This document shows positions 6,988 to 32,022 of a stretch of 64,000 nucleotides of DNA, one piece after another. The DNA lies in the NCBI GenBank assembly GCA_902635945.1, contig CACPPU010000001.1, forward strand, positions 364,955-428,954, read 5' to 3'. Within the stretch, counting starts at the first letter, position 1. Every line of letters starts with the position of its first letter. The translations under genes were made by a program, and so were the position numbers. The notes beneath the pieces were generated by a model. It was not told the origin of the DNA, did not search any database, and saw only the letters and a list, made by a program, of their open reading frames with translations. Source of the stretch: an uncultured Candidatus Actinomarina sp. GTDB taxonomy: Bacteria > Actinomycetota > Acidimicrobiia > Actinomarinales > Actinomarinaceae.

Positions 6988-7589
6988 TGCAACTTCAATC
7001 ACTAACTATCGAATTTATTCTTCTCCAAATTAGTGTCGCTTTTAGCCCAGGACTAATTATTGCTTTGGTTGTTAATGAAGCAGTCCAAAAAGGAAGAAAA
7101 AATGCTCTTCAAGTTGCTTATGGTGCAGCAGCTGGTGCTATCGGAATAACCATAATCACTGCTGCCGTCATTACTTACATCTTTTCATTAATTCCTGAGA
7201 TACTCACTTTTATTTATATTTTTGGAATAATTTATATTGTTTATAAAGGAATCAAAACCATACAAGACAAAGGAGAGAGTCCTAAAGTCCTTGGCTCAGC
7301 ATCTTTTTTGTCAGGATTTAAGATTAACCTTGCTAATCCAAAGATGTGGGTTTTCTATTTGTCTGTATTGCCTTTGTTTATAACGGATGAATCTAATATT
7401 TTTTCTTCTCTTATTTATCTTGGAATTGTGACAATATTTATTAATCTTTTTGCCGACATCTCATATGCTTTACTGAGTAGTTATTTATTCAATAATTCAA
7501 CAACAAAAGTAAAAAGGTACATAAATATAATCAGCGGTGTCTGTTTGATTGGAATTGGTATCTATTTATTCTTCAGTAGATTTATCTGA
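6987..7589 (+). CDS. LysE/RhtB-type amino-acid efflux permease
   Basis: 200 aa with about 6 TM segments. Length, topology and the N-terminal SPGLIIALVV segment fit the LysE family. It has an alternative (GTG) start abutting the previous stop. Confidence 0.55.
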   Translation: MQLQSLTIEFILLQISVAFSPGLIIALVVNEAVQKGRKNALQVAYGAAAGAIGITIITAAVITYIFSLIPEILTFIYIFGIIYIVYKGIKTIQDKGESPKVLGSASFLSGFKINLANPKMWVFYLSVLPLFITDESNIFSSLIYLGIVTIFINLFADISYALLSSYLFNNSTTKVKRYINIISGVCLIGIGIYLFFSRFI

Positions 7590-8531
7590 ATCGTCTGAAA
7601 TTTTAGCTGAATCATCAGATTTCTCATCTTTAAAGAGTTCTGAAATTGCACCTATGCTTCCAAGAGTGGCTGATAAATCCGCCGGTAAGAAAATCTTTGT
7701 AGCATTACCATCAGCGACTTTTTCAAGTGACTCTAAATACTTAATTGCAATTAGATCATTTGTTGGGTCACCTTTGTGTATTGCTGCAAAAACTTTTTCT
7801 ATTGCTTCAGCTTCACCTTCAGCAATTGCAATTTTTTCATATTTTTGTGCATCAGCAACTTCCTTAAGAGCTTCTGCTTCACCAACTGCATCCAAAACTT
7901 GAGACTCTTTTCTTCCTTCTGCAGTAAGAATTGCTGCTCTTTTTTCACCTTCAGCTTCTGTAACTACAGCTCTTCTGTCCCTTTCAGCTTTCATAACTTT
8001 GTTCATAGCATCTTGAACATCTTGTGGTGGATCGATTCTCTGAATCTCAACTCTGACAACTCTTGTTCCCCATTTGTCAGTTGCTTCATCAAGAATAAGC
8101 TTTAGCTGAGTATTAATAGTCTCTCTTGAAGTTAATGCAGCATCTAACTCTAAGTCACCAACTACATTTCTTAAGTTTGTTTGTGCTAATTTTGTAGCAG
8201 CTTGAATAAAGTCCCCAACATTATAAACAAGCTTTTTTGGATCAGTTGGTTCATAGTAAATGATTGCATCAACTGTGATTGTCACATTGTCTTTTGTAAT
8301 AACTTCTTGTGGTGGAACATCAATAACTTGCTCTCTCATGTCTACGATGATTATTCTCTCTAAGCCAGGTATAACAATATTTAGACCAGATTTAGCCTCT
8401 CTATGAAACTTACCTAATCTTTCAACAAGTCCTGTCTCGAAAGGTCTAATAATTCTGAATATTCTAAATAATACAACCCCGAGTAATGCAATTATCACTA
8501 CCCATCTAACTATTCCAAATATAATTTCCAT
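7566..8531 (-). CDS. SPFH/band-7 (stomatin/HflKC-like) membrane scaffold protein
   Basis: 321 aa with an N-terminal TM, then ERLGKFHREAKSGLNIVIPGLERI...QEVITKDNVTITVDAIIYY...NLRNVVGDLELD and a coiled-coil AEGE-rich tail. This is the classic SPFH architecture. Confidence 0.85.
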   Translation of the reverse strand: MEIIFGIVRWVVIIALLGVVLFRIFRIIRPFETGLVERLGKFHREAKSGLNIVIPGLERIIIVDMREQVIDVPPQEVITKDNVTITVDAIIYYEPTDPKKLVYNVGDFIQAATKLAQTNLRNVVGDLELDAALTSRETINTQLKLILDEATDKWGTRVVRVEIQRIDPPQDVQDAMNKVMKAERDRRAVVTEAEGEKRAAILTAEGRKESQVLDAVGEAEALKEVADAQKYEKIAIAEGEAEAIEKVFAAIHKGDPTNDLIAIKYLESLEKVADGNATKIFLPADLSATLGSIGAISELFKDEKSDDSAKISDDSDKSTEE

Positions 8532-8540
8532 AATTTAAGT

Positions 8541-8975
8541 TTAACCTTCCTTTGTTTGTACTTCTAATTTAGTTCCATTTACACTTGTAACTTTTACCTC
8601 TGTTCCTGCTGGAATTCTTTTATCTAGTGAAACTACTTGCCAATCATCTCCATAAACATGCTGCAAGGTTGAGTCATATATATCAAGCTCCTCAGTTGTA
8701 ACGAATGTCATACCTAAATATTTATTTGCGCCTTCAGTAAAGCTTGTGCTTGTTTTCTTATCTTTGTTTCTAGGTCCAAAAACTTTTACTGATAAATACA
8801 CACCAACAAGGCTAAACACGATAAACGTAGAAAGCTGAATATTTTGACTGTCTGTAAATAGAGAAGCTACTCCAGCAAAAAAAGATCCTATAGCAAAAGG
8901 TAGTATAAAAAAAGTTGGAACTAAAAGTTCTGCCAATAATAGAACGGCTGCTGCAATGAACCAGATTTGTGTCAT
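8541..8975 (-). CDS. NfeD-family membrane protein (partner of the SPFH protein)
   Basis: 144 aa with 2-3 N-terminal TM helices and a C-terminal OB-like soluble domain (VVSLDKRIPAGTEVKVTSVNGTKLEV). It lies immediately upstream of the SPFH gene, as in NfeD-stomatin operons. Confidence 0.7.
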   Translation of the reverse strand: MTQIWFIAAAVLLLAELLVPTFFILPFAIGSFFAGVASLFTDSQNIQLSTFIVFSLVGVYLSVKVFGPRNKDKKTSTSFTEGANKYLGMTFVTTEELDIYDSTLQHVYGDDWQVVSLDKRIPAGTEVKVTSVNGTKLEVQTKEG

Positions 8976-8984
8976 AATGACAAT

Positions 8985-9353
8985 CTAATTATCTTGATCT
9001 TCCTTTTCAAGTTGTTCTTGTTCGAACCTGTTAAGTGCTAGTAAAAACATTACAAAAAGAATTCCGGAACCAACTAAGAAAGTTAATGGAATAATTCTTA
9101 TCTCGAATGCATTCAAACCATCAATATTTGCAGGAGCTGGACCTCGTGGAGCATAAAGTATAAAGAAAATTGAATTAATAACTCCCCAGCCAAATATTGC
9201 AGCACCAGTGATTAAAAAACCTAGTCTCTTTCCAACATTTGTAGCATTAAGTAAAAATGTAGACCCAGCAAATGTGATTATCGAACCAATAAACATAAGT
9301 ATTCCAGTAACTAATAAGTTAGAGGACAAAAGTGATCTCATTATTTCACGCAT
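8985..9353 (-). CDS. Small 4-TM membrane protein, last gene of the Rieske/cytochrome b operon
   Basis: 122 aa and hydrophobic. Its start overlaps the stop of the dihaem cytochrome c gene by 8 nt, which suggests translational coupling. Confidence 0.4.
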   Translation of the reverse strand: MREIMRSLLSSNLLVTGILMFIGSIITFAGSTFLLNATNVGKRLGFLITGAAIFGWGVINSIFFILYAPRGPAPANIDGLNAFEIRIIPLTFLVGSGILFVMFLLALNRFEQEQLEKEDQDN

Positions 9354-10770
9354 CAGGTGTCATTCCTCTCAAGTAATCAATAATAAGTTCTATGTCTGAT
9401 TGCGGAAGAACAGCACCAAAACCAGGCATTTTTCCTCCACCAACACCGTTAACTCCATATGCTTTACCATTTACAGAACCTTTAACAATAAAATCTATCA
9501 AGTCTTCCCTCTGCTTAAACTGGATATTGGCTCTACCTGCTCTTAGTGCAGGTCCCAAACCACCAGATGCTATCTCTTTAGTATATGCTACACCAGCAGA
9601 ATAACCTGCGGTATGACATCTTGCACAGTAAGCGTTAAATAATCCAACTGCTCTTTTAGCTTTTTCTAGATCTCCATCAAAAGTTGAATCAGCAATTTCA
9701 TCGAATGAAACTTCCCAAAGTTTTTCTTCCAATGCTTTTTCAAGAAATGCTAAACCAGTTTCAGCCTCTTTGATAAATTTATCGTATCCCTCTGCAACAA
9801 TTGTTATGTTAATTAATTCGGATTCAAGTTGTGATAAGTAACCGCTTGCAACAGATTTGTCTTTTCTTCCAGGAATAGATTCTTCGTTATCTGGGTCTAA
9901 ATTTAATATAGAAGTTCCCAAAACTTCAGAAACGGTACTGCTGTAAGCTGATAACTCTGTTTCAGTAGAGTCACTTAATCCGTCTTCATCTGTGTCAATT
10001 CCACCTTCTTTGGAAAGTAGTGATGAAACATCTTCAACTGCTTTTTGAACAACAGGTAATTTTCCTGGTGCATCTTTTACGCTTTGGATTAATTCTTTTT
10101 GCCTTGCTATTTCATTCTCAACTAATAGCTCAGATGTATCGAGTCTCGATAATGAGCTATTGATATTCATTTCAATAGTCTGTAGCTCTTCTGATTGTGA
10201 TATTTGAAAGTGATGCATGTACTCGATCAAGTCATCTAATTGTCCATCATTCATTGGACCACCACCTTCTAATCCCCATGCAGGCATAGGTGAGTTTGCA
10301 CGTCCATAAATTAACCAATAACGAACTTCTTCATCATCATATCTATAGAAAACATTGTTTATTGCAGGAGCAGTCCATGTAACATTTATTCCACTTCTCT
10401 TTTCAACATATGAAGCTGCACCACCAGATCCGTCAACACCATGGCAGTTACCACATCCGAATTCTTCATATAAATGTTCTCCTCTTTCTACAGATACCTC
10501 ATCAAATTCTTCTACAAAACCTTCTTGTCTGTCTTGTTCTCCAAGGTAATAAAGAGGAATCATGATAGTTAAAAGTGAGGCAATTAAAACTGCGACAGTT
10601 AGAGTTCTATCAAGTGTTTTTGTTTCTAAATCATCATCATTTCGATATTTTGACAAGTTTGGTGCATAATCAGAAACTTTACCTGAGCCTCTAAAACCTG
10701 CAGCAGTAAAAAATGCTAGAGCAGCAATTATCCCTAAAGCAATTAATGTAATTGAAAGTGAACTTGTCAT
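9346..10770 (-). CDS. Membrane-anchored dihaem c-type cytochrome (QcrC-like) with a long insert between the haem domains
   Basis: 474 aa with an N-terminal TM and two CxxCH sites (CGNCH, CARCH). Each site has a downstream Met-Pro ligand context (SPMPAWG, GKMPGFG). About 180 acidic/helical residues separate the two domains. Confidence 0.8.
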   Translation of the reverse strand: MTSSLSITLIALGIIAALAFFTAAGFRGSGKVSDYAPNLSKYRNDDDLETKTLDRTLTVAVLIASLLTIMIPLYYLGEQDRQEGFVEEFDEVSVERGEHLYEEFGCGNCHGVDGSGGAASYVEKRSGINVTWTAPAINNVFYRYDDEEVRYWLIYGRANSPMPAWGLEGGGPMNDGQLDDLIEYMHHFQISQSEELQTIEMNINSSLSRLDTSELLVENEIARQKELIQSVKDAPGKLPVVQKAVEDVSSLLSKEGGIDTDEDGLSDSTETELSAYSSTVSEVLGTSILNLDPDNEESIPGRKDKSVASGYLSQLESELINITIVAEGYDKFIKEAETGLAFLEKALEEKLWEVSFDEIADSTFDGDLEKAKRAVGLFNAYCARCHTAGYSAGVAYTKEIASGGLGPALRAGRANIQFKQREDLIDFIVKGSVNGKAYGVNGVGGGKMPGFGAVLPQSDIELIIDYLRGMTPDA

Positions 10771-10771
10771 A

Positions 10772-11650
10772 CTATTCCTCTGTAGTTAGAGCTATACAAG
10801 ATAAACCCTGGGGATACTTCACTGACATACCTGGTGCTCGAGGTGATTCGATAATTGTACCAGTGTCAATAACAAGTCTTCCATTTACATTAGCGACATT
10901 AAACCTATCAAGATTTCTTGGAGCTGGGCCTGCGAAATATTCACCAACCATATTATATTTTGAACCATGGCAAGGACATTCAAATCCTTGTGATGAGTTA
11001 CACCATGGAACCCTACATCCTAAGTGAACACATCTTTGATAAACAGCTACTAAACCATCAGTAATTGTGGAGCCAGTTGCAAACTGAGAGTTGGCCGCCG
11101 CAGCTGCATCCAATGGAAGCACATAAGCTCTTGCTGCTGGAATAAAAGCTGGAATAACGGAACCATCAGCTTGGAATATTTGACTCTTTATTTCTTCAAT
11201 TGGACCTGCATCAACTTTTGAACCAAAACCACCCGAAACTTTTGGCCAGAAAAACCCTAACCATGAAATTGCTTGAATACCTGCAAAAGCACCAAATGAA
11301 ATTCTAAGAGCTTTTGTTAAAAATTGTCTTCTAGTTATTCCTGCTTCTTCTTCAGAGATCTCTTCATAAATAACTTTTTCTTCAAGCTTTACAGCGCCAT
11401 CTGATTCAACAACTGGTTCGTCAATTTCCTCAACAGTTGCTTCCGTTTCGCCTTTTGGCATCTCTGGTTCTAAAAAGTTGGTTTGAGATTTATCCTCTTT
11501 AAGAGCTTTTTTATCAAGGTTTTTCTTCCAGTTAAAACTTTTTGGTCCTCTACCGGTGACAATAACTACGATACCAACAATGCCTAAAAACCCGACCAGA
11601 GCAAAGGCGGCAAAAGATAATTCAACTATGCTCATTCGAAATGAATCCAA
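10772..11650 (-). CDS. Rieske [2Fe-2S] iron-sulfur subunit
   Basis: The Rieske boxes CVHLGC and CPCHGSKY are present, with N-terminal TM helices. The gene lies between the cytochrome b and cytochrome c genes. Confidence 0.85.
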   Translation of the reverse strand: MDSFRMSIVELSFAAFALVGFLGIVGIVVIVTGRGPKSFNWKKNLDKKALKEDKSQTNFLEPEMPKGETEATVEEIDEPVVESDGAVKLEEKVIYEEISEEEAGITRRQFLTKALRISFGAFAGIQAISWLGFFWPKVSGGFGSKVDAGPIEEIKSQIFQADGSVIPAFIPAARAYVLPLDAAAAANSQFATGSTITDGLVAVYQRCVHLGCRVPWCNSSQGFECPCHGSKYNMVGEYFAGPAPRNLDRFNVANVNGRLVIDTGTIIESPRAPGMSVKYPQGLSCIALTTEE

Positions 11651-12462
11651 TCGAGCAAATCGTCAAACCATATCCCATCAATCCAAGGATAAGTCCAGTT
11701 CCAGCCAGGACCTCTAAAAAGAACTCCAATAATAGTAAGTACACCTGCTCCTGCTAAGAAAAAGGTATAGAACATAATTGCAAATTTTCTTTTAGAAGGA
11801 TGTGTTTCTGGATTTCTATCTATGTATGGAAAAGCCATCCATAGAACTACACCTAAAACTAAAGGAATCATAACTCCAGCAATTTGAGGATCCCAATATG
11901 ACAATAATTCCTGCAAGCCCAAAAAATACCAAGGTGCTTTTGCAGGGTTAGGTGTTACGTTTGGATTTGCTTCTTCAAGAAGAGGTGCTTGTAATATTGC
12001 TGATAGAAAAATTAAAAAAGCTGTCATTGCCATCAATGAAACAAATTCTGGAAGCATCAAATGTGGCCAAGTGTTAACTTTATCAACTGGCTCAGAAACT
12101 GATTTTTGAATTGGTTTTGCTTTTACAACAGTTAACAATCGTTGAGTTACCTTTACTTCAGGTGCAAAATCAACTTCTTCAGGACTATCAGGTTCTGGAG
12201 CTTTTGCTGCAGGCTTTTCTTCAGCGTTTACAGCTGGAGCTGGAGTCTCTGCTGCTGGAGCTGGAGTCTCTGCTGCTGGAGCTGGAGTCTCTGCTGCTGG
12301 AGCTGGAGTCTCGTCAATAGTCTTTACCTCTGGCTCTTTTGAGATAACTGTTGGATCTGACTCACCTTTCATTTCAGCTAAAGCTTGTTCAACACTAATG
12401 CCCAAAGCTTTTGCTCTTGCTTCCGCAGATCTCTGCAATAAATGTTCTGGAATATCTACCAT
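11632..12462 (-). CDS. Cytochrome b C-terminal half (subunit-IV-like) with an N-terminal QRSAEARA module and a Pro/Ala/Glu repeat linker
   Basis: 276 aa. The C-terminal TM region carries the Qo-site PEWY-type motif as KAPWYFLGLQELL. The N-terminus reads MVDIPEHLLQRSAEARAKALGISVEQALAEM, followed by (ETPAPAA)x4. Confidence 0.75.
   Translation of the reverse strand: MVDIPEHLLQRSAEARAKALGISVEQALAEMKGESDPTVISKEPEVKTIDETPAPAAETPAPAAETPAPAAETPAPAVNAEEKPAAKAPEPDSPEEVDFAPEVKVTQRLLTVVKAKPIQKSVSEPVDKVNTWPHLMLPEFVSLMAMTAFLIFLSAILQAPLLEEANPNVTPNPAKAPWYFLGLQELLSYWDPQIAGVMIPLVLGVVLWMAFPYIDRNPETHPSKRKFAIMFYTFFLAGAGVLTIIGVLFRGPGWNWTYPWIDGIWFDDLLDWIHFE
12233..12313 (-). repeat. Perfect 21-bp tandem repeat (about 3.9 copies) encoding (ETPAPAA)n in the subunit-IV-like gene
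   Basis: GCTGGAGCTGGAGTCTCTGCT occurs at 12233, 12254 and 12275, with a partial copy from 12296. Confidence 0.9.
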
Positions 12463-12468
12463 AAGCCT

Positions 12469-13242
12469 CTACAAAGGTCCTGAAATTCCGCCATCTTTTC
12501 TTACTCTCCAGAAGTGGACAGCCATAAAGATAACAATAATAAATGGTAAGAAAAGTACATGAAGAACATAAAATCTTAATAATGTAGCTGTTGTTGCCTC
12601 GAGTCCGGCGAACAATCCAAATTTGGCCTGAGCTCCAATAACAGGCGTATAGCCAGCCATGTTACCTCCAACAGTGACAGCCCATATGGCTAGCTGGTCC
12701 CAAGGAAGAAGGTAGCCTGTAAAAGACAACAATAAGGTTAGTAATAGCAAAATTACTCCTATGACCCAGTTGAACTCTCTCGGTGCTTTATATGCTCCGT
12801 GATAAAAGACTCTAGACATATGAAGGAATACAACTAGAACCATAAGGTGTGCACCCCACCTATGCATATTTCTAACTAACGAACCAAATGCGATACTTGT
12901 TTGTAAGGTCTGAATGTCAACGTACGCAAGTTCGGTTGGGCGGAAATAAAACATAAGCCAAATTCCGGTAATTGTTAATACTATGAAAAGAAAGAAACTT
13001 AACCCACCCAAGCAAAGAGTGTATGAGAGCCTAACTCCGTGTCTTTTAACTTTGACTGGATGGAGGTGGTACAACACGTTATTCATAACAACATAAGATC
13101 TGTTTCTAGGACTGTCTACATAGCCTTTCCTAAAAGGAGATCCCGGACGGAAAATACTGGACATTAATTTTCCACCTCTGAAGCTATCGCTAGCACTTAC
13201 TCTTGCTTCTTTAATCCTGTCTCGAAGAGATAATTTTTGCAT
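12469..13242 (-). CDS. Cytochrome b N-terminal half (b6-type, four-helix dihaem core)
   Basis: 257 aa. Haem ligand spacing is H-x13-H in NMHRWGAHLMVLVVFLHM and H-x14-H in LHVLFLPFIIVIFMAVHF. The latter spacing is the b6/Firmicutes-type pattern. Confidence 0.85.
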   Translation of the reverse strand: MQKLSLRDRIKEARVSASDSFRGGKLMSSIFRPGSPFRKGYVDSPRNRSYVVMNNVLYHLHPVKVKRHGVRLSYTLCLGGLSFFLFIVLTITGIWLMFYFRPTELAYVDIQTLQTSIAFGSLVRNMHRWGAHLMVLVVFLHMSRVFYHGAYKAPREFNWVIGVILLLLTLLLSFTGYLLPWDQLAIWAVTVGGNMAGYTPVIGAQAKFGLFAGLEATTATLLRFYVLHVLFLPFIIVIFMAVHFWRVRKDGGISGPL

Positions 13243-13251
13243 TATATAATT

Positions 13252-13698
13252 CTAAAGCCTTCCATATATATATCCGTGTCTGTCATTCCTCTCACCAGAG
13301 TCTTCATCCCAAGGTGCTGTATAAACTCCATTTTGAACGGCTTGATCTGCTAATGAGCCAGCAAACTTTCCGAGAGAAATCACCCCTGTTGGGCATCTAT
13401 CTACACACAATGCACATCTAGTACAAGCTTCTTCATCAACAACAAAAAAACCTGGTGCCTCAGATTCATCTGGAGCTTCCACATTTATTGAATCGTCAAT
13501 TGCATCAACAGATAAATAATGAATGCATTTCCAAGGACATATATCAACACACCCTTCACACAAAATACATTCTGCTTCATCTATATGTAAAAATTGTTTT
13601 GGACGGACACGAGAAGTGACTTTTTCTGTATCAACCATTGCAAGATTGTACTTCTTTTCAAACTCTGGCATCTCTATTAAGACTTCTGATTTAGGCAT
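13252..13698 (-). CDS. 2x[4Fe-4S] ferredoxin-domain subunit encoded within the Rieske/cytochrome b operon
   Basis: 148 aa with two CxxCxxCxxxCP motifs (CILCEGCVDICP, CTRCALCVDRCP). It overlaps the upstream gene by 8 nt. Confidence 0.75.
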   Translation of the reverse strand: MPKSEVLIEMPEFEKKYNLAMVDTEKVTSRVRPKQFLHIDEAECILCEGCVDICPWKCIHYLSVDAIDDSINVEAPDESEAPGFFVVDEEACTRCALCVDRCPTGVISLGKFAGSLADQAVQNGVYTAPWDEDSGERNDRHGYIYGRL

Positions 13699-14284
13699 CT
13701 TGCTCCACCCTTACGACCTCTTTACCATAATCAGAAATTCTAGATTTAGAACTTTCAATTTTATTATTTACATCTTGGATTAAATAGGCAACTACTAATC
13801 CTGCGATTAAAAAGTTAGTTGAAATACCTAACTGTATGATGTCTTTTAACGCAGCAAGGCTTAAACCAATTTCATTATTTAAAAATAGTATTGGTGGAAA
13901 TTGTATAAACTCTCTTTGACCTGTCCACTCTAAAGGTCCTTGTGCTAGGTTCAACCACTCTGATGGGACAATTCCTAAAAGGATTGACATTTCGATCCAT
14001 GTTAGAAATGCAAAATAAGTAGCTTTTGCCCAAGTTAATTCTTTTTGATTCCAGACCACTAATACCATGCCAAGTAAAAGGAGCTGGCTTGCACCAAATG
14101 CTAAAAGCTGACCAATGGATTGAGGCAACCACCCTCGTGGAATCCAATTAAAATAATTTACTACTGCACCTTCAGAAAGACCAGCAAAATGAGCAATGAT
14201 AACTCCAATGGTCATGCCACCGAGCCCTGAAACAATTGAAACTAAACCTATTCTGTATCTAAATTTATAAATTGTATAAATCAA
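13691..14284 (-). CDS. Polytopic membrane protein, first gene of the Rieske/cytochrome b operon
   Basis: 197 aa with about 5 TM segments. A good RBS (GAGGAAA on the minus strand) lies just upstream of the ATG at 14284. No family recognised. Confidence 0.4.
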   Translation of the reverse strand: MIYTIYKFRYRIGLVSIVSGLGGMTIGVIIAHFAGLSEGAVVNYFNWIPRGWLPQSIGQLLAFGASQLLLLGMVLVVWNQKELTWAKATYFAFLTWIEMSILLGIVPSEWLNLAQGPLEWTGQREFIQFPPILFLNNEIGLSLAALKDIIQLGISTNFLIAGLVVAYLIQDVNNKIESSKSRISDYGKEVVRVEQDA

Positions 14285-14419: not shown

Positions 14420-15823
14420 TTGGCTAAATTGATGAAAATAAAGTTGTTTCCAAAAAACGAACAAGAACTTTCAAAACTCTTTGTTTTGATTTTTCCACTT
14501 ACCTTATTGCTATCACTAACTATTTCATTTCTAAAAAATGCATACTTTACTTTTGCAAACCTTCTGCCAAACAATTCGGTTTTTAATTACGGTTTCTTAG
14601 ACAGGCTCGACACACAGGCAGCTTTAGGTCTAGTTTTCGGTGCGTCACTTTGTTTGAGCTTTTCATATTTATTTTCAAAATCACTAGGTAGATCAATGGT
14701 ACTATTCCCGATTGTATTTTTAACGTTACTGGGTGTTGTTGGAACTGAATTTTTAGACATACTTGTAAATTTCTTCTTTCAGAACTCAGCATATGATTTG
14801 GGTAATAGTTCCCTTCTCATTCTTTTAAAAATTCTGGTTGTGTTTGGATTATTTGGACTTGCCACACTAAACCTACTTGCTAAAAAAGAAGCTTCAATTT
14901 TTGCAAGTGCACAATTTATATATGGTGCGGTGGTCTTTTACTTAATATCTTTATTTATTGTTAGAGCAGAATTAAATGTGTTTTCAGACATATTTTTAGT
15001 TAACTCTTTATATACAGGTACACATATATATGTTGGTGTTGCTTTCATATATATGGCAATAGTTCATTTTTTAATGACTAGACCACTCCAAGCAGTATTA
15101 TTCAACAAAACCCTTTCATCTATTACGTTTTGGGGTTTTTTGTTCCTATTGCCTTGGACAAATTTTAAATATTATTACGGCTCGGTACTTCCAAATTGGA
15201 TTGAAAATATATCTATCTATCTCTCAATGAGCCTTGTTATTCCTTTGTTAGCTTTCCTAGTTAATTACATCAAAACAATACAATCTAAGGAAGTTGATGG
15301 AGTAGGATCACTAAATCTGCTTAACTTTTCAGTAATCCTTTTTTCTATAACAACAATTTTTCATATGATTTCAAGTTTTGAAAACCTTCTTCCAATTTTA
15401 GGGATTACAAATTTTGTAAATGTTATTACCTATGGGCTCTTTGGATCTCTTGTACTAGCAACAATATCCTTAAGTTATTATTTAATACCTAAGTTGTATG
15501 GAAGAGAAGTTAATTACTCTAGACTCGAAGACATTACCTTTTTTGGTTTCAAAATATCTTATCTTTTATTGTTGATTAACAATACTGTATTGGGCGTTAA
15601 CTCAGGTTATTCATGGAATGCGGGAGCAAATGCAGGAAGCCCAACAATTTACGGAGAAGGGTATGGTGTTGTTTGGAGTCTTATTAGTTTTAATTTTTCT
15701 GTTAATACTTTCATCTCTCTACTTTTACTTGGTAGTGGTTTTCTATATTTAATTTCTGTTTTACGAGCAATCTCATCTGGTTCAATAACAACTGTTGAAG
15801 AAATGGTTTATAGCAATGATTGA
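14420..15823 (+). CDS. CcoN-like (cbb3-type haem-copper oxidase subunit I homologue) lacking most metal-ligand histidines
   Basis: 467 aa with about 12 TM segments. Blocks such as SLSYYLIPKLYGRE, GSVLPNWIENISIYLSMSLVIP and YTGTHIYVGV resemble conserved CcoN segments (comparison from memory). The whole protein has only three His. The likely true start is the ATG at 14432. Confidence 0.55.
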   Translation: MAKLMKIKLFPKNEQELSKLFVLIFPLTLLLSLTISFLKNAYFTFANLLPNNSVFNYGFLDRLDTQAALGLVFGASLCLSFSYLFSKSLGRSMVLFPIVFLTLLGVVGTEFLDILVNFFFQNSAYDLGNSSLLILLKILVVFGLFGLATLNLLAKKEASIFASAQFIYGAVVFYLISLFIVRAELNVFSDIFLVNSLYTGTHIYVGVAFIYMAIVHFLMTRPLQAVLFNKTLSSITFWGFLFLLPWTNFKYYYGSVLPNWIENISIYLSMSLVIPLLAFLVNYIKTIQSKEVDGVGSLNLLNFSVILFSITTIFHMISSFENLLPILGITNFVNVITYGLFGSLVLATISLSYYLIPKLYGREVNYSRLEDITFFGFKISYLLLLINNTVLGVNSGYSWNAGANAGSPTIYGEGYGVVWSLISFNFSVNTFISLLLLGSGFLYLISVLRAISSGSITTVEEMVYSND

Positions 15824-15897: not shown

Positions 15898-16713
15898 GTG
15901 AGGAGAACTCAAGTGAGTGATTTAGTAAATAAAGTAGCTGAATTATTAAATGCGCCTGTTGATCTTGTTCAGAGATCTGCAGAGGCAAGAGCACAGGCAT
16001 CTGGAAAATCTGTTGAAGAGGTATTAAGTTCATGGGCTGGTGGAGAAAGTGTTGCTGCAAGCTCAGCGCCAGCTCCAAAAGAAGAAGCTGTTGTTGAAGA
16101 GGCTCCAGCTGCAGAGGTTGTAGAAGAGGCTGTCGAGGAAGTAGTTGAAGAAGTTGTTGAAGAAACTAAAACTCAGGAGGTTGTCGAGGAAGTAGTTGAA
16201 GAAGTTGTTGAGGAAATTGTTGAGCTAAAAAATGAAAGTGCTTTAAGTTTTATTTCAGGAGTTCTTTTAGTTGGTTTATTTACATTTCTATTCGCTTTTG
16301 TGATTCCAAAGAACCAAGCTACTGATATAGTTAGTGACTCTCTAAATAACAGCGTTAGTGCATCAAATGAGGTTATTAAGGGAGCTGAAGTATACGCAGA
16401 ATTGAATTGTCAATCTTGCCATACACAGAATGTTAGAACTCTAATTCCAGACACTCAAAATGGTAGAGTTCTAAAAAATAAATTTGCAAATGAAACGTTA
16501 ATTAATAATGTTGGAAATATAAGACTTGGACCAGATCTTTCGACCAGCGCAACACGTGAACCCACAAACAATAGTCAATGGCTAACTCGATACTTATCAG
16601 ACTCAACATCTGTCAATAGGGATATTCCACATCCAAGTTATGACTTTCTCGATGATGACGATTTGGAATATCTCGTAACTTATTTACTATCATTAGGAGA
16701 ATCAAATGAGTGA
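15898..16713 (+). CDS. CcoO-like monohaem cytochrome c with an N-terminal QRSAEARA module and acidic repeat linker
   Basis: The C-terminal domain KGAEVYAELNCQSCHTQNVR...RLGPDLS...IPHPSYDFL parallels the CcoO blocks (CxxCH, GPDL, MPxY). The probable true start is the GTG at 15913, preceded by AGGAGA, giving MSDLVNKVAELL like the next gene. Confidence 0.65.
   Translation: MRRTQVSDLVNKVAELLNAPVDLVQRSAEARAQASGKSVEEVLSSWAGGESVAASSAPAPKEEAVVEEAPAAEVVEEAVEEVVEEVVEETKTQEVVEEVVEEVVEEIVELKNESALSFISGVLLVGLFTFLFAFVIPKNQATDIVSDSLNNSVSASNEVIKGAEVYAELNCQSCHTQNVRTLIPDTQNGRVLKNKFANETLINNVGNIRLGPDLSTSATREPTNNSQWLTRYLSDSTSVNRDIPHPSYDFLDDDDLEYLVTYLLSLGESNE
16131..16211 (+). repeat. 30-bp exact direct repeat at 51-bp spacing in the CcoO-like linker (VEEVVEEVVEE)
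   Basis: 16131-16160 and 16182-16211 are identical (TGTCGAGGAAGTAGTTGAAGAAGTTGTTGA). Confidence 0.85.
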
Positions 16714-17638
16714 TTTAGTAAATAAAGTAGCAGAGATTTTAAACGCACCAGTTGACTTGGTACAGCGTTCTGCGGAAGCAAGGGCTGCTGCTTCTGGAGT
16801 TTCAGTTGATGACGTCCTAAGTTCATGGGCTGGCGGTGAAAGTGTAGCTGCGTCTGCTCCAAAAGAAGAAGCTCCTGTTGAAGAGGCTCCAAAAGAAGAA
16901 ACTGTTGTCGAAGAAACAATTGAAGAAGAAGCTCCTGTTGAAGAGGCTCCAAAAGAAGAAACTGTTGTTGCAACTGCTGTAACACGACAAGTAACTAAAT
17001 CTATTTCCTTTGCTAATGAAACAATGGGTATAAAAATTAATTCTGAAAACCTTCTTCCTAAGTGGCTCAACTTTAGTTTTATTATCATTCCATTATTTAT
17101 ACTCATAGGTCTTATTAGTTCTTCTAACACACAAGAGTGCGGTGAAAGAGGGATGCTAAATGTTGATAGAAAGTCTCAAGAGGCTGTAAATTGTGATGGC
17201 TCTCCTTATGAAGGTAGAGGTGTTGCTGCAACAAACACAATAAATTATATTGCACTCGGTCAAGAAGTTTATGCAGGTGCTGCTGCATGTGCTGGCTGTC
17301 ACGGAGGTGGCGGTGGCGGTGGAGTTGGTCCAGCATTTACTGGTGGTGCGTTATATACTACTTTCCCAACATGTGCAGATCACACTAAATGGATTCAACT
17401 CGGATCTGCAGGATGGCAAGCTGAAGTAGGTCCAACTTATGGTGCTGAAGATACAGTCTCTATTGGAGGAATGCCAGGATTTCAAGGAAAGCTTACAGAA
17501 GATGAATTATATGCTGTTGTTGTCTTTGAGAGAGTAGTTTTTGGTGGCGGAAACACTGAAGAAGTACTTAGTGACTGTGGTCTTTTAGAAACAGAAGAGG
17601 ATGAAGTCACCACAGAAGCCCTTAGCTCAACTCCTTAA
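16706..17638 (+). CDS. Membrane-anchored monohaem class I c-type cytochrome with an N-terminal QRSAEARA module
   Basis: 310 aa. The N-terminus MSDLVNKVAEILNAPVDLVQRSAEARAAASGVSVDDVLSSWAGGE is followed by an acidic repeat linker and a TM. The C-terminal domain has CAGCHGGGGGGGVGPAF and the Met ligand context GGMPGFQGKLTEDE. Confidence 0.75.
   Translation: MSDLVNKVAEILNAPVDLVQRSAEARAAASGVSVDDVLSSWAGGESVAASAPKEEAPVEEAPKEETVVEETIEEEAPVEEAPKEETVVATAVTRQVTKSISFANETMGIKINSENLLPKWLNFSFIIIPLFILIGLISSSNTQECGERGMLNVDRKSQEAVNCDGSPYEGRGVAATNTINYIALGQEVYAGAAACAGCHGGGGGGGVGPAFTGGALYTTFPTCADHTKWIQLGSAGWQAEVGPTYGAEDTVSIGGMPGFQGKLTEDELYAVVVFERVVFGGGNTEEVLSDCGLLETEEDEVTTEALSSTP
16865..16968 (+). repeat. 44-bp exact direct repeat at 60-bp period in the cytochrome c linker (EEAPVEEAPKEETVV)
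   Basis: 16865-16908 and 16925-16968 are identical (GAAGAAGCTCCTGTTGAAGAGGCTCCAAAAGAAGAAACTGTTGT). Confidence 0.85.
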
Positions 17639-18173: not shown

Positions 18174-18614
18174 ATGGTTAAACAAAAACGAGAGAAAAGA
18201 GTCGTAGGGTGGAAAGAGCATGCGGCTTTACCTGATCTCAATGTTAAAAGTGTTATTGCAAAAATAGATACTGGAGCAACTTTAGCTTCAATTGATGCTG
18301 CTGATATAAAAATTGTTACAAGAGATAAAGTCAAATACGTAAAGTTCAAGGTAATGAAAAGAAATAATACGGTACGTAAAACTTCTGCTCCCTTAGAAGG
18401 ATATAAACGAATAAAAAGTTCTAATGGTGATGTTGAGAGAAGACCGTATATAAAAACGACTCTATTAATGGATGGTATATCTAAAAAAATAGAGCTTACT
18501 TTAACTGACAGAGGCCCAATGGATTACACAATGCTTATTGGAAGAAAAGCATTAGGTAGAAGATGGGTAGTTAATCCATCCATAAGTTTTCTCACAAAAC
18601 CTGAAAGAGATTAA
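18174..18614 (+). CDS. Retropepsin-like aspartic protease of the RimB / putative ATP-dependent zinc protease (DUF785) family
   Basis: 146 aa. The block AKIDTGATLASIDA contains the D-T-G-A retropepsin signature. It lies directly upstream of rimK, as in rimB-rimK pairs. Confidence 0.6.
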   Translation: MVKQKREKRVVGWKEHAALPDLNVKSVIAKIDTGATLASIDAADIKIVTRDKVKYVKFKVMKRNNTVRKTSAPLEGYKRIKSSNGDVERRPYIKTTLLMDGISKKIELTLTDRGPMDYTMLIGRKALGRRWVVNPSISFLTKPERD

Positions 18615-18616
18615 AT

Positions 18617-19519
18617 ATGAAACTTGGAATTCTTTCTCAAGATATACGACTTTATTCAACAAGTAGACTTTATGAATCAGCTAAAAACCGAGGTCATGAT
18701 ACAGAAGTAGTCAGTTATTTACGATGTTATATGAACATAGCAAAAGCTAAGCCTCGAATCTTCTTTCAAGGTAGGCAGATGAATTTTGACGTGGTGATTC
18801 CAAGAATTGCTGCAACATGGACCTTTTATGGGGCTGCGGTTGTGAGACAGTTTGAGTTAATGGGAGCTTTGTCTGCAAACTCTTCAGCTTCAATTAGTAG
18901 GTCTAGAGACAAGTTGAGAGCATTACAGTTAATTGGAAATAGTGGTGTTGAGATGCCTGTTACAGGATACGTTCACCTTTCAAGAGATATTGAGTCAGTA
19001 TTAAAAACTGTTGGTGAACCTCCATACGTCATAAAGTTGCTTGAAGGAACTCAAGGAAGAGGAGTTGTGTTAACCGAAACTATGGAAGCTGCGATAAGTG
19101 CTATAGAGACCATGAAAAAAATTGATGCAAACATATTAATTCAAGAGTTTATAAGCGAATCTAGAGGAGAGGACATTAGAGCAATTGTTGTGGGCGATAA
19201 AGTTGTAGCTTCAATGAAACGCAAAGCTAAGCCAGGAGAGTTTCGTTCAAATGTTCATCTTGGTGGAACTGTTGAAAATTATGATTTAAACGAACAAGAA
19301 GAAGAAAGTGCCATTAAAGCTGCAAAAGTACTTGGTCTTTCTGTCGCTGGTGTAGATTTAATTCAATCAAATAGAGGTCCTTTGGTTTTAGAAGTGAATT
19401 CCTCGCCTGGATTAGAAGGAATTGAAAAAGCTAGCGGAGTTGATGTTGCTGATAAGATTATCGAATATTTAGAGGATGAGCATATCAATAGAGATAAATC
19501 TAAACCGATAGATATTTAA
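18617..19519 (+). CDS. rimK: RimK-family ATP-grasp alpha-L-glutamate ligase
   Basis: 300 aa. The typical RimK blocks YVIKLLEGTQGRGVVL, EFISESRGEDIRAIVVG, EFRSNVHLGG and AGVDLIQSNRGPLVLEVNSSPGLEGIE are present. Confidence 0.85.
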   Translation: MKLGILSQDIRLYSTSRLYESAKNRGHDTEVVSYLRCYMNIAKAKPRIFFQGRQMNFDVVIPRIAATWTFYGAAVVRQFELMGALSANSSASISRSRDKLRALQLIGNSGVEMPVTGYVHLSRDIESVLKTVGEPPYVIKLLEGTQGRGVVLTETMEAAISAIETMKKIDANILIQEFISESRGEDIRAIVVGDKVVASMKRKAKPGEFRSNVHLGGTVENYDLNEQEEESAIKAAKVLGLSVAGVDLIQSNRGPLVLEVNSSPGLEGIEKASGVDVADKIIEYLEDEHINRDKSKPIDI

Positions 19520-28086: not shown

Positions 28087-28160
28087 GGGCGCTTAGCTCA
28101 GTCCGGCAGAGCGCTTCCCTTACAAGGAAGAAGTCACAGGTTCAAATCCTGTAGCGCCCA
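28087..28160 (+). tRNA. tRNA-Val (anticodon UAC)
   Basis: Manual cloverleaf: acceptor GGGCGCT/AGCGCCC plus discriminator A, D arm GCTC/GAGC, anticodon arm CTTCC-CTTACAA-GGAAG, variable AAGTC, T arm ACAGG-TTCAAAT-CCTGT. It is 74 nt and CCA is not encoded. Confidence 0.9.
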
Positions 28161-30015: not shown

Positions 30016-30133
30016 AATTATTTAAAACTGTAGATACTCTCTGATAACTTCTGATATCTTTTTTTGAGAGCTTAAGTTCATTGACGCTATGAATTGATAT
30101 TCTCTGGTACTACCTAGTATTTAATGGTTCTTT

Positions 30134-30187
30134 CCTTACAAGGAAGAAGTCACAGGTTCAAATCCTGTAGCGCCCACAAGGGTTTTT
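30134..30187 (+). repeat. att-like repeat, right copy (orphan tRNA-Val 3' fragment)
   Basis: Identical 54 bp. Upstream of it, similarity to the tRNA decays (one mismatch, three matches, then none), so this is a fragment rather than a second tRNA. Confidence 0.9.
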
Positions 30188-30189
30188 TG

Positions 30190-32022
30190 TTATTTATTAA
30201 TTAATATTTTTACATCTACATTTGGATTGTAATAAAATTCACTCTTACGAAATACATCTTGGTCTAATTGAAAAATAGTTGACGTAAATTTTTGGTTTTC
30301 ATTACATTTAAAATCTGTAATAGAGTCAATTTTGTAATACAAATCTCCTTCTTCATTAACAGAGCAAATAATTAGATTTGGATTTTTAGACAATGTGGTA
30401 TTTAAAATATTTTCATCAATGAAACCATATTCTGTAAGATTATCAATAATAAAAGGCTCATTATGATTTGTAGGATGAATAATATATGCTTCATTTAATT
30501 TATCTAAATAGAATAAAATAATTACTTTATCTAAAGCAAGAACAGTGAAGTCATCACTAAAATTCTTTTTAATTGATTCAGATAAAGTTTTGACAGGATA
30601 GTTATTGTAAATTGTCTGTGCGTTGACAAGATTAGATATTGAGTTTGAAGAAATGGGCAACAAGTATGATTGGTATAATAAAAAAGAGATAACAAAAAAT
30701 ATGTATCTAATATTTGAGCCTTCTAAAAATCCAAATGAAATTGAAATAAAAAACATTAAATAAATAAGATGATGGTAGAAGCCCTTTCCTGCCAAATAAA
30801 AAAAACATATAGATATGAAAATAAATGTTAAGTTGGAGAAAGAATAAATATTATAAATTTTTGTGCTAATAATTTTGGAAAATATCGTCCATGAACTAAA
30901 AAGTAAAATAAGAAATAATAACGATAGTAAATTACTAGTTTTATAAATCGATTCAAGAAAGGCTCTCAAATCATAAAAGAAGTAAGTGTCTGTTCCGGTA
31001 TAGCTTAAAGGTATTTTAAATAAAGTTAATAAATAAATATCTAATAAACTTTGTGAAAAATAAATTAGAATTACCGTTGAATGGACGAAAGTAAAACCAA
31101 AGAATAGATAAATACCTTTTTGGATTATATGCTTTTTATTTTGCAAAATAACTAATACAAAAAAACCTATTAAAAAAATACTCGAGCCTATATTGATCAA
31201 AGTGGAGATTCCAATAAATATACCCCAAGTTAGATTTGCTGTTTTTTTACTACTGCCACCAAGAAGTCCATAATAAGCCAACCCTAAAAATGATAAGCTC
31301 ATTGTTTCGCTGTATTCAGCATTTGCCCATGGAAGACTCATGAATGCAAGATAAGTAACTGACGAAATCAAACCAGTAGTTTTTTTCATTCTGAATCTTT
31401 TTGATATTATTTTAAAAATTAATAATGCATTAACAAATATAAAAATATCAAAAATTATTTTGTAATATATGAAATTTTTTCCAGAAAAAAATAAAATAAC
31501 GTAATTAAAAAAATAAAAAAGAGGCTGTTTGTCGTCCCATACCCTCTCATAAGGCAAGTATCCTTTAAATATATCATTTGCAATTACTAGTGATGTGCTT
31601 ATATCATGATCAATGATTTCGAAATCAAGATAACTATTTTGACTTAAAAGAGTTAATCCAAAAATTAAAAATGCATAGGTAAACGAGTATTTCTTTCCTT
31701 CTTCAAAAAAAGTAGTGAATTTATTATTCTCGTTCAGAGATGGAAAAATTGGAAATGTAGCAATAAAAAAAGCTTGAAAAAAAGCTATGGAAAACTCATA
31801 AATATTTTTTTGGACAAGATACACAAATACTAAAAAGTTTAGAAAATAAAATAGATATATAAATTTATTTAAAAATATAAAAAATATATATATAGATGCT
31901 AATAGTAAAAAAATATTCTTTGAAAATGTATCGTTTATACCAAAATTAGGAAGAATAAAATAAAATATAAGACTTGCAATGACAGATAAAAAGTAATTTT
32001 TATAGTTTGAAGAAATTTTCAC
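30190..32022 (-). CDS. GT-C-fold polytopic glycosyltransferase (ArnT/PMT-like); paralogue of 55578-57278
   Basis: 610 aa with more than 10 TM segments. The first-loop block FEIIDHDISTSLVIANDIFKGYLPYERVWDDKQPLFYFF resembles the ArnT/PMT_2 acidic loop. The C-terminal soluble domain aligns with the 566-aa paralogue (LALDKVIILFYLDKLNEAYIIHP vs LAIDHLLLLYYLEKPNTSYIIHP). Confidence 0.6.
   Translation of the reverse strand: MKISSNYKNYFLSVIASLIFYFILPNFGINDTFSKNIFLLLASIYIFFIFLNKFIYLFYFLNFLVFVYLVQKNIYEFSIAFFQAFFIATFPIFPSLNENNKFTTFFEEGKKYSFTYAFLIFGLTLLSQNSYLDFEIIDHDISTSLVIANDIFKGYLPYERVWDDKQPLFYFFNYVILFFSGKNFIYYKIIFDIFIFVNALLIFKIISKRFRMKKTTGLISSVTYLAFMSLPWANAEYSETMSLSFLGLAYYGLLGGSSKKTANLTWGIFIGISTLINIGSSIFLIGFFVLVILQNKKHIIQKGIYLFFGFTFVHSTVILIYFSQSLLDIYLLTLFKIPLSYTGTDTYFFYDLRAFLESIYKTSNLLSLLFLILLFSSWTIFSKIISTKIYNIYSFSNLTFIFISICFFYLAGKGFYHHLIYLMFFISISFGFLEGSNIRYIFFVISFLLYQSYLLPISSNSISNLVNAQTIYNNYPVKTLSESIKKNFSDDFTVLALDKVIILFYLDKLNEAYIIHPTNHNEPFIIDNLTEYGFIDENILNTTLSKNPNLIICSVNEEGDLYYKIDSITDFKCNENQKFTSTIFQLDQDVFRKSEFYYNPNVDVKILINK

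Follow-up and report, generated by a model that had tools for sequence, protein, structure and literature searches.

A recurrent N-terminal mini-domain on electron-transport proteins of Candidatus Actinomarina and other Acidimicrobiia

Three respiratory genes with a homologous N-terminal module

We analysed a stretch of 64,000 nucleotides (nt) from the genome of an uncultured Candidatus Actinomarina (contig CACPPU010000001.1). This whole stretch is hereafter called the window, and coordinates are those of the window unless another locus is named. Three respiratory-chain genes of the window, encoding a CcoO-like protein, a membrane cytochrome c and subunit IV of a bc complex, begin with a homologous N-terminal module of 34-45 amino acids (aa). 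The carrier genes and their modules, with the evidence from the open reading frame (ORF) listing, the hidden Markov model (HMM) scan and AlphaFold2, are as follows.

15913-16713, plus strand: CcoO-like gene, first module carrier
16706-17638, plus strand: membrane cytochrome c gene, second module carrier
12462-11632, minus strand: bc-complex subunit IV gene, third module carrier
15913-16047, plus strand: long-form (W-type) module, aa 1-45 of the CcoO-like protein (ORF listing, HMM scan)
16706-16840, plus strand: long-form (W-type) module, aa 1-45 of the membrane-anchored cytochrome c (ORF listing, HMM scan, AlphaFold2)
12361-12462, minus strand: short-form (M-type) module, aa 1-34 of subunit IV (HMM scan, AlphaFold2)

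The three N-termini quoted in the initial annotation of this DNA were present both in the ORF listing and on direct reading of the sequence. The long-form module of the CcoO-like protein comprises the segments H0 (SDLVNKVAELL), H1 (VDLVQRSAEARAQAS) and H2 (VEEVLSSW), with AGGE at its end. The subunit-IV module reads IPEHLLQRSAEARAKALG ISVEQALAEMKGE and has no H0. GTG 15913 is the most likely start codon of the CcoO-like gene; a ribosome-binding site (RBS), AGGAGA, occupies 15901-15906, six bases 5' of this codon, and an alternative longer ORF from 15898 would overlap it. For the cytochrome c gene the start codon is ATG 16706, preceded by AGGAGA at 16695-16700; the gene overlaps the end of the CcoO-like gene, including its stop codon, by 8 nt. 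As had been remarked earlier, the two tandem genes have both the RBS and their first codons in common: the first 27 nt past the start codons are identical, and DNA identity is 77% over 144 nt. At the protein level, the two modules are 88% identical.

When all six reading frames of the window were scanned with an HMM built from the three copies, exactly these three were found. When the subunit-IV copy was left out, a profile of the two tandem copies retrieved it with an E-value of 1.4e-7, the next best match being at 0.67. The reverse phmmer search, from the subunit-IV copy to the tandem copies, gave 2.5e-5 and 3.9e-5, and pairwise BLASTP yielded 16/33 identities. The homology proposed for the three copies, including that of the cytochrome b subunit, thus survives profile-based statistics.

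Carrier proteins and their linkers

In all three proteins the module is followed by an acidic or Pro-rich repeat linker and then by the first transmembrane (TM) helix, the order that the initial annotation had described. The parts downstream of the module are listed below.

16048-16248, plus strand: acidic linker of the CcoO-like protein, aa 46-112, part of it encoded by 12-nt tandem repeats at 16113-16224
16249-16713, plus strand: TM helix (aa 113-131) and mono-haem FixO/CcoO-type domain of the CcoO-like protein, with CQSCH at aa 166 (Pfam FixO)
16841-17065, plus strand: acidic/Pro linker of the cytochrome c, aa 46-120, with a 30-nt x3.5 tandem repeat at 16856-16960
17066-17638, plus strand: TM helix (aa 121-139) and cytochrome c domain, with CxxCH at aa 195 (Pfam)
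12049-12360, minus strand: Pro/Ala/Glu linker of subunit IV, aa 35-138, with a perfect 21-nt x3.8 repeat at 12233-12312
11632-12048, minus strand: three-TM PetD/subunit-IV domain (Pfam Cytochrom_B_C, PF00032, 35.8 bits)

The CcoO-like protein has the features of its family, namely an N-terminal TM anchor, a mono-haem CxxCH site, a FixO match above the cutoff (34.2 bits vs 29.6) and an adjacent CcoN-like gene. We consider it divergent, because its FixO score and the COX1 score of the adjacent gene are both low. The cytochrome c matches Cytochrome_CBB3 (27.3 bits) and Cytochrom_C (26.6 bits) of Pfam and is the CcoP-like third gene of the oxidase cluster. Subunit IV combines the Cytochrom_B_C match with three TM helices and with the gene order b6, subunit IV, Rieske.

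Ahead of the first TM helix, the linkers measure 67 aa in the CcoO-like protein, 75 aa in the cytochrome c and 104 aa in subunit IV, and DNA tandem repeats encode them in all three carriers. The CcoO-like linker is 33% D+E, 25% V and only 4% K+R, and the 21-nt repeat of subunit IV (12233-12312) encodes ETPAPAA x4. Antisense ORFs over the linkers, such as 16702-17130 on the minus strand and 12111-12320 on the plus strand, were rejected as by-products of the repetitive sequence.

These linkers are hotspots of assembly and gene-calling errors. Many public gene calls (among P0013, P0027, P0037, P0042, P0061 and P0073) end inside the linker with frameshifted tails, and some run into apparent adapter-derived peptides (SLIHI, VSYTHL..). 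Since repetitive linkers cause such errors, module genes are often truncated or frameshifted in assemblies.

A domain family of the Acidimicrobiia

The search of related genomes that the initial annotation had proposed was carried out, and it showed that the module is a whole domain family of the Acidimicrobiia, beyond the three copies first noticed. An exhaustive profile search of 1.84 billion cluster representatives returned 429 at E<=1e-3, of which 174 remained at E<=1e-10. When nine concatenated modules served as the query of a word-indexed search, 4827 clusters were matched; their names, where given, were 'hypothetical', 'cytochrome c' and 'mono/diheme cytochrome c family protein'. In a scan of one genome per GTDB species, the window fell within Ca. 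Actinomarina (OCS155), and the module also occurred in other Acidimicrobiia of low and high GC, including Ca. Spongiisociaceae. With obviously mis-binned sources set aside, all named sources belong to the Acidimicrobiia.

Some metagenome-assembled genomes deposited as Gammaproteobacteria or Acidobacteria also contain module loci of the Actinomarina or Acidimicrobiia type. Their tblastn identities to the cytochrome c module of the window are 96% (L006, JBJKYB010000001.1), 91% (L035) and 63% (L039), and their labels are probably binning or labelling errors. A match in Arthrobacter cupressi (L054) was discarded as spurious; it scored only 25 bits and lies inside a long ORF with out-of-frame-like composition.

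In full-length members the module is always N-terminal to the first TM helix. Its 1-7 tandem copies recur about every 80-90 residues, and the spacers between them are acidic or rich in Ala, Pro and Glu. Single-TM haem c proteins (CcoO-like proteins and cytochromes c) and the three-TM subunit IV recur as carriers across low- and high-GC Acidimicrobiia. Another class is a four-TM protein with a C-terminus homologous (42-44% identity) to the window ORF 8985-9353, of which P0121 and P0130 carry 3-7 modules. Also found was a 5-6-TM membrane protein, with a C-terminal cupredoxin domain in some cases. In Actinomarina this protein, of 374 aa, directly follows ctaC-D-E-F-G, and its relatives adjoin the ctaCDEFG operon in 12 other Acidimicrobiia loci. 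Finally, in one Actinomarina clade the carrier is a soluble, KorA-like alpha subunit of 2-oxoacid:ferredoxin oxidoreductase with POR, POR_N and PFOR_II domains, preceded by an N-terminal module and an acidic linker of about 150 residues.

A metagenome scan with an alignment of 7 module sequences added 158 module-bearing ORFs and no new carrier class; every ORF not cut by the locus end fell in the known classes. The carriers found so far are electron-transport proteins. This wider distribution agrees with the earlier suggestion of a common cytoplasmic handle on respiratory subunits.

A distant, higher-GC relative within the Acidimicrobiia (L065, a 2.09-Mb contig) keeps the divergent arrangement of the bc and oxidase genes and the same bc gene order. 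There, CcoN and CcoO are fused into a protein of 634 aa without the module (8088-9992 of L065), whereas four modules are found on the cytochrome c and two weaker ones on subunit IV. The number of modules per complex is therefore plastic.

Predicted fold and relation to known domains

AlphaFold2 predicted three helices in the long form (cytochrome c copy; residues 3-12, 16-30 and 34-41) with a mean confidence (pLDDT) of 85.7 and above 90 in the core. For the short form of subunit IV it predicted a helix hairpin (6-20 and 24-31) with a core pLDDT of about 88. The core of the module is accordingly predicted to be a two-helix hairpin, in which H1 ('PE.L[LV].RSAEARAKA') and H2 ('V[ED]EVLAE[WM].G') are joined by a G-x-S turn, and this core is usually preceded by the third helix, H0. 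Turns between helices are of 3 residues in the predictions of both forms. The module is acidic overall, with a mean net charge of -2.8 (range -9 to +1), to which H1 contributes +1.4 and H2 -2.1.

No Pfam or NCBIfam model covers the module. Foldseek found nothing significant in the PDB, the best matches being designed alpha/alpha toroid repeats (E ~1.6), and a profile of 64 diverse modules reached only E=0.15 against PDB sequences. DUF1805 of Pfam matched the Actinomarina long form alone, at 17 bits against a cutoff of 29.5, and was judged a chance match. We found no description of the module in the literature, and the family appears to be a new, undescribed domain family.

The initial annotation had been reminded of HeH, SAP and Rho-N motifs. 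Domains of the HeH/SAP/Rho_N/LEM group have two helices joined by an extended loop of 5-8 residues, and they are usually basic and bind nucleic acids. None of the four was matched at E<=10 by 13 single modules, a search in which the HMMER filters may hide very weak matches. The 3-residue turns and the acidic charge of the module also depart from this group, and the resemblance was not upheld.

A helix-turn-helix (HTH) pattern had likewise been suggested, at another place in the module than the only HTH signal that we detected. This signal, the sole recurrent one in the sequence searches, lies between H0 and the RSAEARA helix, where H0, turn and H1 display the HTH pattern A-x-x-L-G-x-P-x-x-L-V-x-R. 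It was below threshold in every single copy, with at best 15.6 bits for Xre-like-HTH (cutoff 25.8), 14.1 bits for HTH_3, and further sub-threshold matches in HTH_23, HTH_31, Sigma70_r4 and AbiEi_4. Only sums over repeats exceeded a cutoff, Xre-like-HTH reaching 39.5 bits when 4-5 repeats were added together. Domains of the HTH type have a tri-helical core with a basic recognition helix; the long form of the module is predicted to have three helices and a mildly basic H1, but the module as a whole is acidic and the short form lacks the first helix.

Cytoplasmic location of the module

The highest 19-residue hydropathy within the first 60 aa is only 0.28-0.84 across the three N-termini, hence there is no signal-peptide h-region. 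The haem c domains lie outside the membrane after a single TM helix, and their N-termini are therefore inside. In b6f structures PetD has its N-terminus on the n-side, and the KorA-type enzyme is cytoplasmic. These three lines of evidence place the module in the cytoplasm, in agreement with the initial annotation, which had described it as N-terminal, devoid of a signal peptide and hence presumably cytoplasmic. Its counter-hypothesis of a cleaved export, lipoprotein or Tat signal is excluded by the missing h-region, by the presence of up to 7 internal tandem copies and by the soluble KorA carrier.

Conservation, subtypes and concerted evolution

The module is under strong purifying selection and is as conserved as the catalytic core. 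Among 29 subunit-IV orthologues of 245-330 aa, mean pairwise identity was 0.887 in the module, 0.876 in the TM domain and 0.423 in the linker. Over 64 diverse copies, which include paralogues and tandem copies, P15, R21, S22, A25 and A27 were at least 90% conserved. Since the same residues are kept across paralogues and tandem copies, this pattern points to one shared binding surface.

Two carrier-specific subtypes, W-type and M-type, are distinguished by position 41. All 405 oxidase-linked modules have Trp here (332/332 from cytochrome c, 56/56 from CcoO and 17/17 linked to caa3); bc-linked modules mostly have Met, Leu or Tyr, and KorA modules have Met or Ile. On direct comparison of the sequences, the KorA module shares 24-26 of 32 residues with that of subunit IV and belongs to the same type. 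It therefore seems to be a copy that was transferred to a new carrier, as would be understandable for a module acting in trans.

Concerted evolution of the neighbouring ccoO-like and cytochrome c genes at their 5' ends is seen in most Actinomarina genomes (loci L008-L012, L015, L019-L021, L025, L027, L029, L032, L033, L035, L037 and L038). Within a genome, the two ends have a median DNA identity of 99.3% over 144 nt; they are 100% identical in 14 of 30 genomes, and the identical stretch extends over 165-270 nt. Between genomes, orthologues of the same regions are only about 70% identical. The window's own clade, at 74-81%, is the exception and escaped this homogenisation; in the window, 15913-16056 and 16706-16849 are 77% identical.

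Genomic neighbourhood

The carriers of the window belong to two divergently oriented gene clusters, which are represented by the following features.

14420-15823, plus strand: divergent CcoN-like haem-copper oxidase subunit I, first gene of the oxidase cluster (COX1, ccoN)
8985-14284, minus strand: bc-complex operon (Pfam, NCBIfam)

The plus-strand oxidase cluster runs CcoN-like, CcoO-like, cytochrome c and a membrane protein of 135 aa. Its CcoN-like subunit scored 41.5 bits for Pfam COX1 (cutoff 34.8) and E=7e-9 for NCBIfam ccoN. The bc operon encodes, in order, a 197-aa membrane protein, a 2x[4Fe-4S] ferredoxin-like protein, cytochrome b6, subunit IV, the Rieske protein, a dihaem cytochrome c and a 122-aa membrane protein (8985-9353).

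The start of this operon (13252-14284, minus strand; 6832-7862 in L065) consists of a conserved membrane protein of about 195 aa, which has no Pfam match, followed by the ferredoxin-like protein of about 148 aa. This is an unusual addition to a Rieske/b6 complex, and it may have a bearing on the KorA carrier, as it could provide a route for electrons from ferredoxin into the bc complex. The Rieske protein (10772-11650, minus strand) displays an acidic insert of about 90 residues (…EATVEEIDEPVVESD…EEISEEEAG…) between its N-terminal TM helix and a Tat-like ITRRQFL motif; the RSAEARA module was not found in this insert.

Genes for NfeD (8541-8975) and an SPFH/Band_7 protein (7566-8531) lie 3' of the bc operon on the same minus strand, separated by gaps of 9 nt, and seem to be co-transcribed with it. 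Scaffold proteins of the SPFH type organise microdomains of membranes. The pair recurs in the Actinomarina locus L055 and is absent after the operon in L052 and L065; it was rejected as a conserved neighbour or partner and could be a lineage-specific one.

Directly 3' of the oxidase cluster (18174-19519, plus strand) are genes for a Zn_protease (PF05618) and a RimK poly-glutamate ligase. Beyond about 30 kb of the window (~30000-64000), GC content falls from about 0.35 to about 0.25. The drop lies just past a tRNA (28087-28160) and a partial, truncated tRNA-like match (30112-30168), and a 610-aa ORF at 30190-32022 has no Pfam match. This shift may mark the boundary of a genomic island.

Possible functions of the module

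Our tentative preference, which we hold with slightly less than even confidence, is that the module is a tethered protein-protein docking domain that co-localises components of electron transport. Any binding by the module, and the target of that binding, we infer from the features described above, and docking would be the most economical function for them. According to this proposal, the module would be an independently folding mini-domain at the free N-terminal end of a long, flexible cytoplasmic linker. It would have been duplicated in tandem and copied between electron-transport proteins, retaining one conserved surface on H1. By means of the flexible arm, each carrier would be able to bind either a cytoplasmic partner common to all or the modules on other carriers. 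Docking would hold the members of the electron-transport chain near one another and near a ferredoxin-reducing dehydrogenase.

Several points weigh against this proposal. Our searches tie the module to no known interaction domain by fold or by sequence. The alignments behind the AlphaFold2 models were shallow (8 and 12 sequences). Carrier-specific subtypes could reflect descent and not binding specificity, and the near-identity of the tandem copies requires no functional link, because gene conversion accounts for it.

The closest functional analogues of such a docking domain would be the peripheral subunit-binding domain (PSBD; Pfam E3_binding) and the HTH of RodZ, although by sequence the module belongs to neither. 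The PSBD, on the swinging arms of the E2 cores of 2-oxoacid dehydrogenases, recruits partner enzymes. Both it and the module are helical mini-domains of about 35 aa between flexible linkers rich in Ala and Pro or in acidic residues, and one module carrier, the KorA-like subunit, also oxidises 2-oxoacids. Module proteins thus display the architecture of a small helical domain with flexible, Ala/Pro-rich linkers, the recruitment of partners being putative. In contrast to the PSBD, the module has an H1 about 6 residues longer, an inter-helix loop of 3 residues vs about 14, an N-terminal position on membrane cytochromes and up to 7 copies, and E3_binding (PF02817) is absent from the module matches at E<=10.

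RodZ has an N-terminal cytoplasmic Xre-type HTH, a linker and a single TM helix, and its HTH binds MreB, not DNA (PMC6052060, PMC3599482). A membrane-tethered, HTH-like helical domain at a cytoplasmic N-terminus is common to RodZ and the module carriers, and RodZ offers a precedent for protein-protein docking by such a domain. The module differs in being shorter (3 helices vs 5), acidic, repeated and located on respiratory proteins, and HTH_25 was matched only at E=0.032 in one multi-copy module protein.

In the same phylum, Mycobacterium and Corynebacterium possess an obligate cytochrome bcc-aa3 supercomplex (PMC8361435, PMC4505504). There, complexes III and IV are physically coupled, and a membrane-bound cytochrome c takes the place of a soluble carrier. 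By comparison, the bc complex of the window belongs to the split b6/subunit-IV type and includes a ferredoxin-like subunit, and a supercomplex in this system is putative. The coupling of bcc-aa3 runs via membrane and periplasmic contacts and, to our knowledge, no cytoplasmic tether domain has been described for it. A further parallel is FixP_N/CcoP, a cytoplasm-facing N-terminal extension on the membrane-anchored cytochrome c of cbb3-type oxidases. FixP_N differs from the module in being a TM hairpin element; it was matched only near the TM helix of one relative (aa 125-152, E=0.0011, below the cutoff) and never in the module.

A more elaborate form of the docking proposal, which we regard as doubtful, is that W-type and M-type modules are multivalent 'stickers' on 'spacers' that assemble a respiratory hub on the cytoplasmic side of the membrane in Acidimicrobiia. 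The W-type modules of the cbb3-like and caa3 clusters and the M-type modules of the bc complex and KorA would bind one another or a common scaffold, clustering complex III with both terminal oxidases. KorAB would then be docked beside the ferredoxin-like subunit of the bc complex, and electrons from 2-oxoacids would be channelled directly into the membrane chain. If true, this would be a mode of supercomplex organisation that has not been described for any respiratory chain.

Explanations other than docking are less consistent with the charge and conservation of the module, with its soluble carrier and with a linker that uncouples it from the catalytic domains. Conceivable, if unlikely, is that it has no specific ligand, and that module and linker form a solubility cap, an entropic bristle, or an aid to topology or assembly. 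As such, they might keep the N-terminus cytoplasmic, space complexes apart or shield the linker from proteolysis. The long, low-complexity linkers, variable in length and sequence, would suit such a role, as would a copy number that varies freely from 0 to 7, including the module-free CcoN-CcoO fusion of L065. A non-specific cap would nevertheless not be expected to keep R21, S22, A25 and A27 near-invariant or to be as conserved as a catalytic core; a soluble enzyme needs no topology aid, and the restriction to electron-transport proteins would go unexplained.

We find it improbable, more so than a cap or bristle, that the module is a membrane-tethered HTH that binds DNA or RNA and, given how small these cells are, ties the respiratory complexes to transcripts or the nucleoid. 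The HTH pattern of H0-turn-H1, the sub-threshold matches and their summed score, and the mildly basic H1 are in line with such a role, and a high copy number would suit a polymeric target. On the other hand, no single copy passes a Pfam threshold, and the short form of subunit IV and KorA is without H0 and thereby without half of the putative HTH. The acidic module and the strongly polyanionic linkers of Actinomarina make DNA binding unlikely, and the nucleic acid considered as a partner in the initial annotation loses its appeal for the same reason.

Slightly less probable again is a regulatory sensor or acceptor, which would bind a small metabolite or be post-translationally modified and thereby tune respiration. 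The invariant Arg-Ser pair in the N-terminal half of H1 and the occurrence of the module on several, possibly co-regulated redox enzymes could be read in this way. Yet the long flexible linker mechanically uncouples the module from the catalytic domains, arrays of up to seven copies are unusual for sensors, and no known ligand-binding family was matched.

We attach practically no weight to a cleaved Sec, Tat or lipoprotein export signal or to a mis-called start codon, since the superficially twin-arginine-like 'RR' of some high-GC copies (LLRRSAEAKA) has to be set against the low hydropathy, the internal copies, the module on KorA, the RBS directly 5' of the module start codon and an amino-acid sequence conserved across the class.

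Implications

These findings describe a real and statistically solid domain family with a striking distribution, and for annotation they define a new domain family. The near-perfect direct repeats of 165-270 bp that lie 0.8 kb apart in the oxidase cluster are unusual for streamlined genomes. With 35-45 aa, the module is also a concrete handle that could be synthesised and used as bait for a putative partner.

In the sea, Acidimicrobiia such as Ca. Actinomarina occur in great abundance, and their respiratory chain still awaits experimental study. In these bacteria, three respiratory modules and one dehydrogenase bear a class-specific cytoplasmic domain that is conserved like the catalytic cores, which points to a further layer of organisation or regulation of electron transport.

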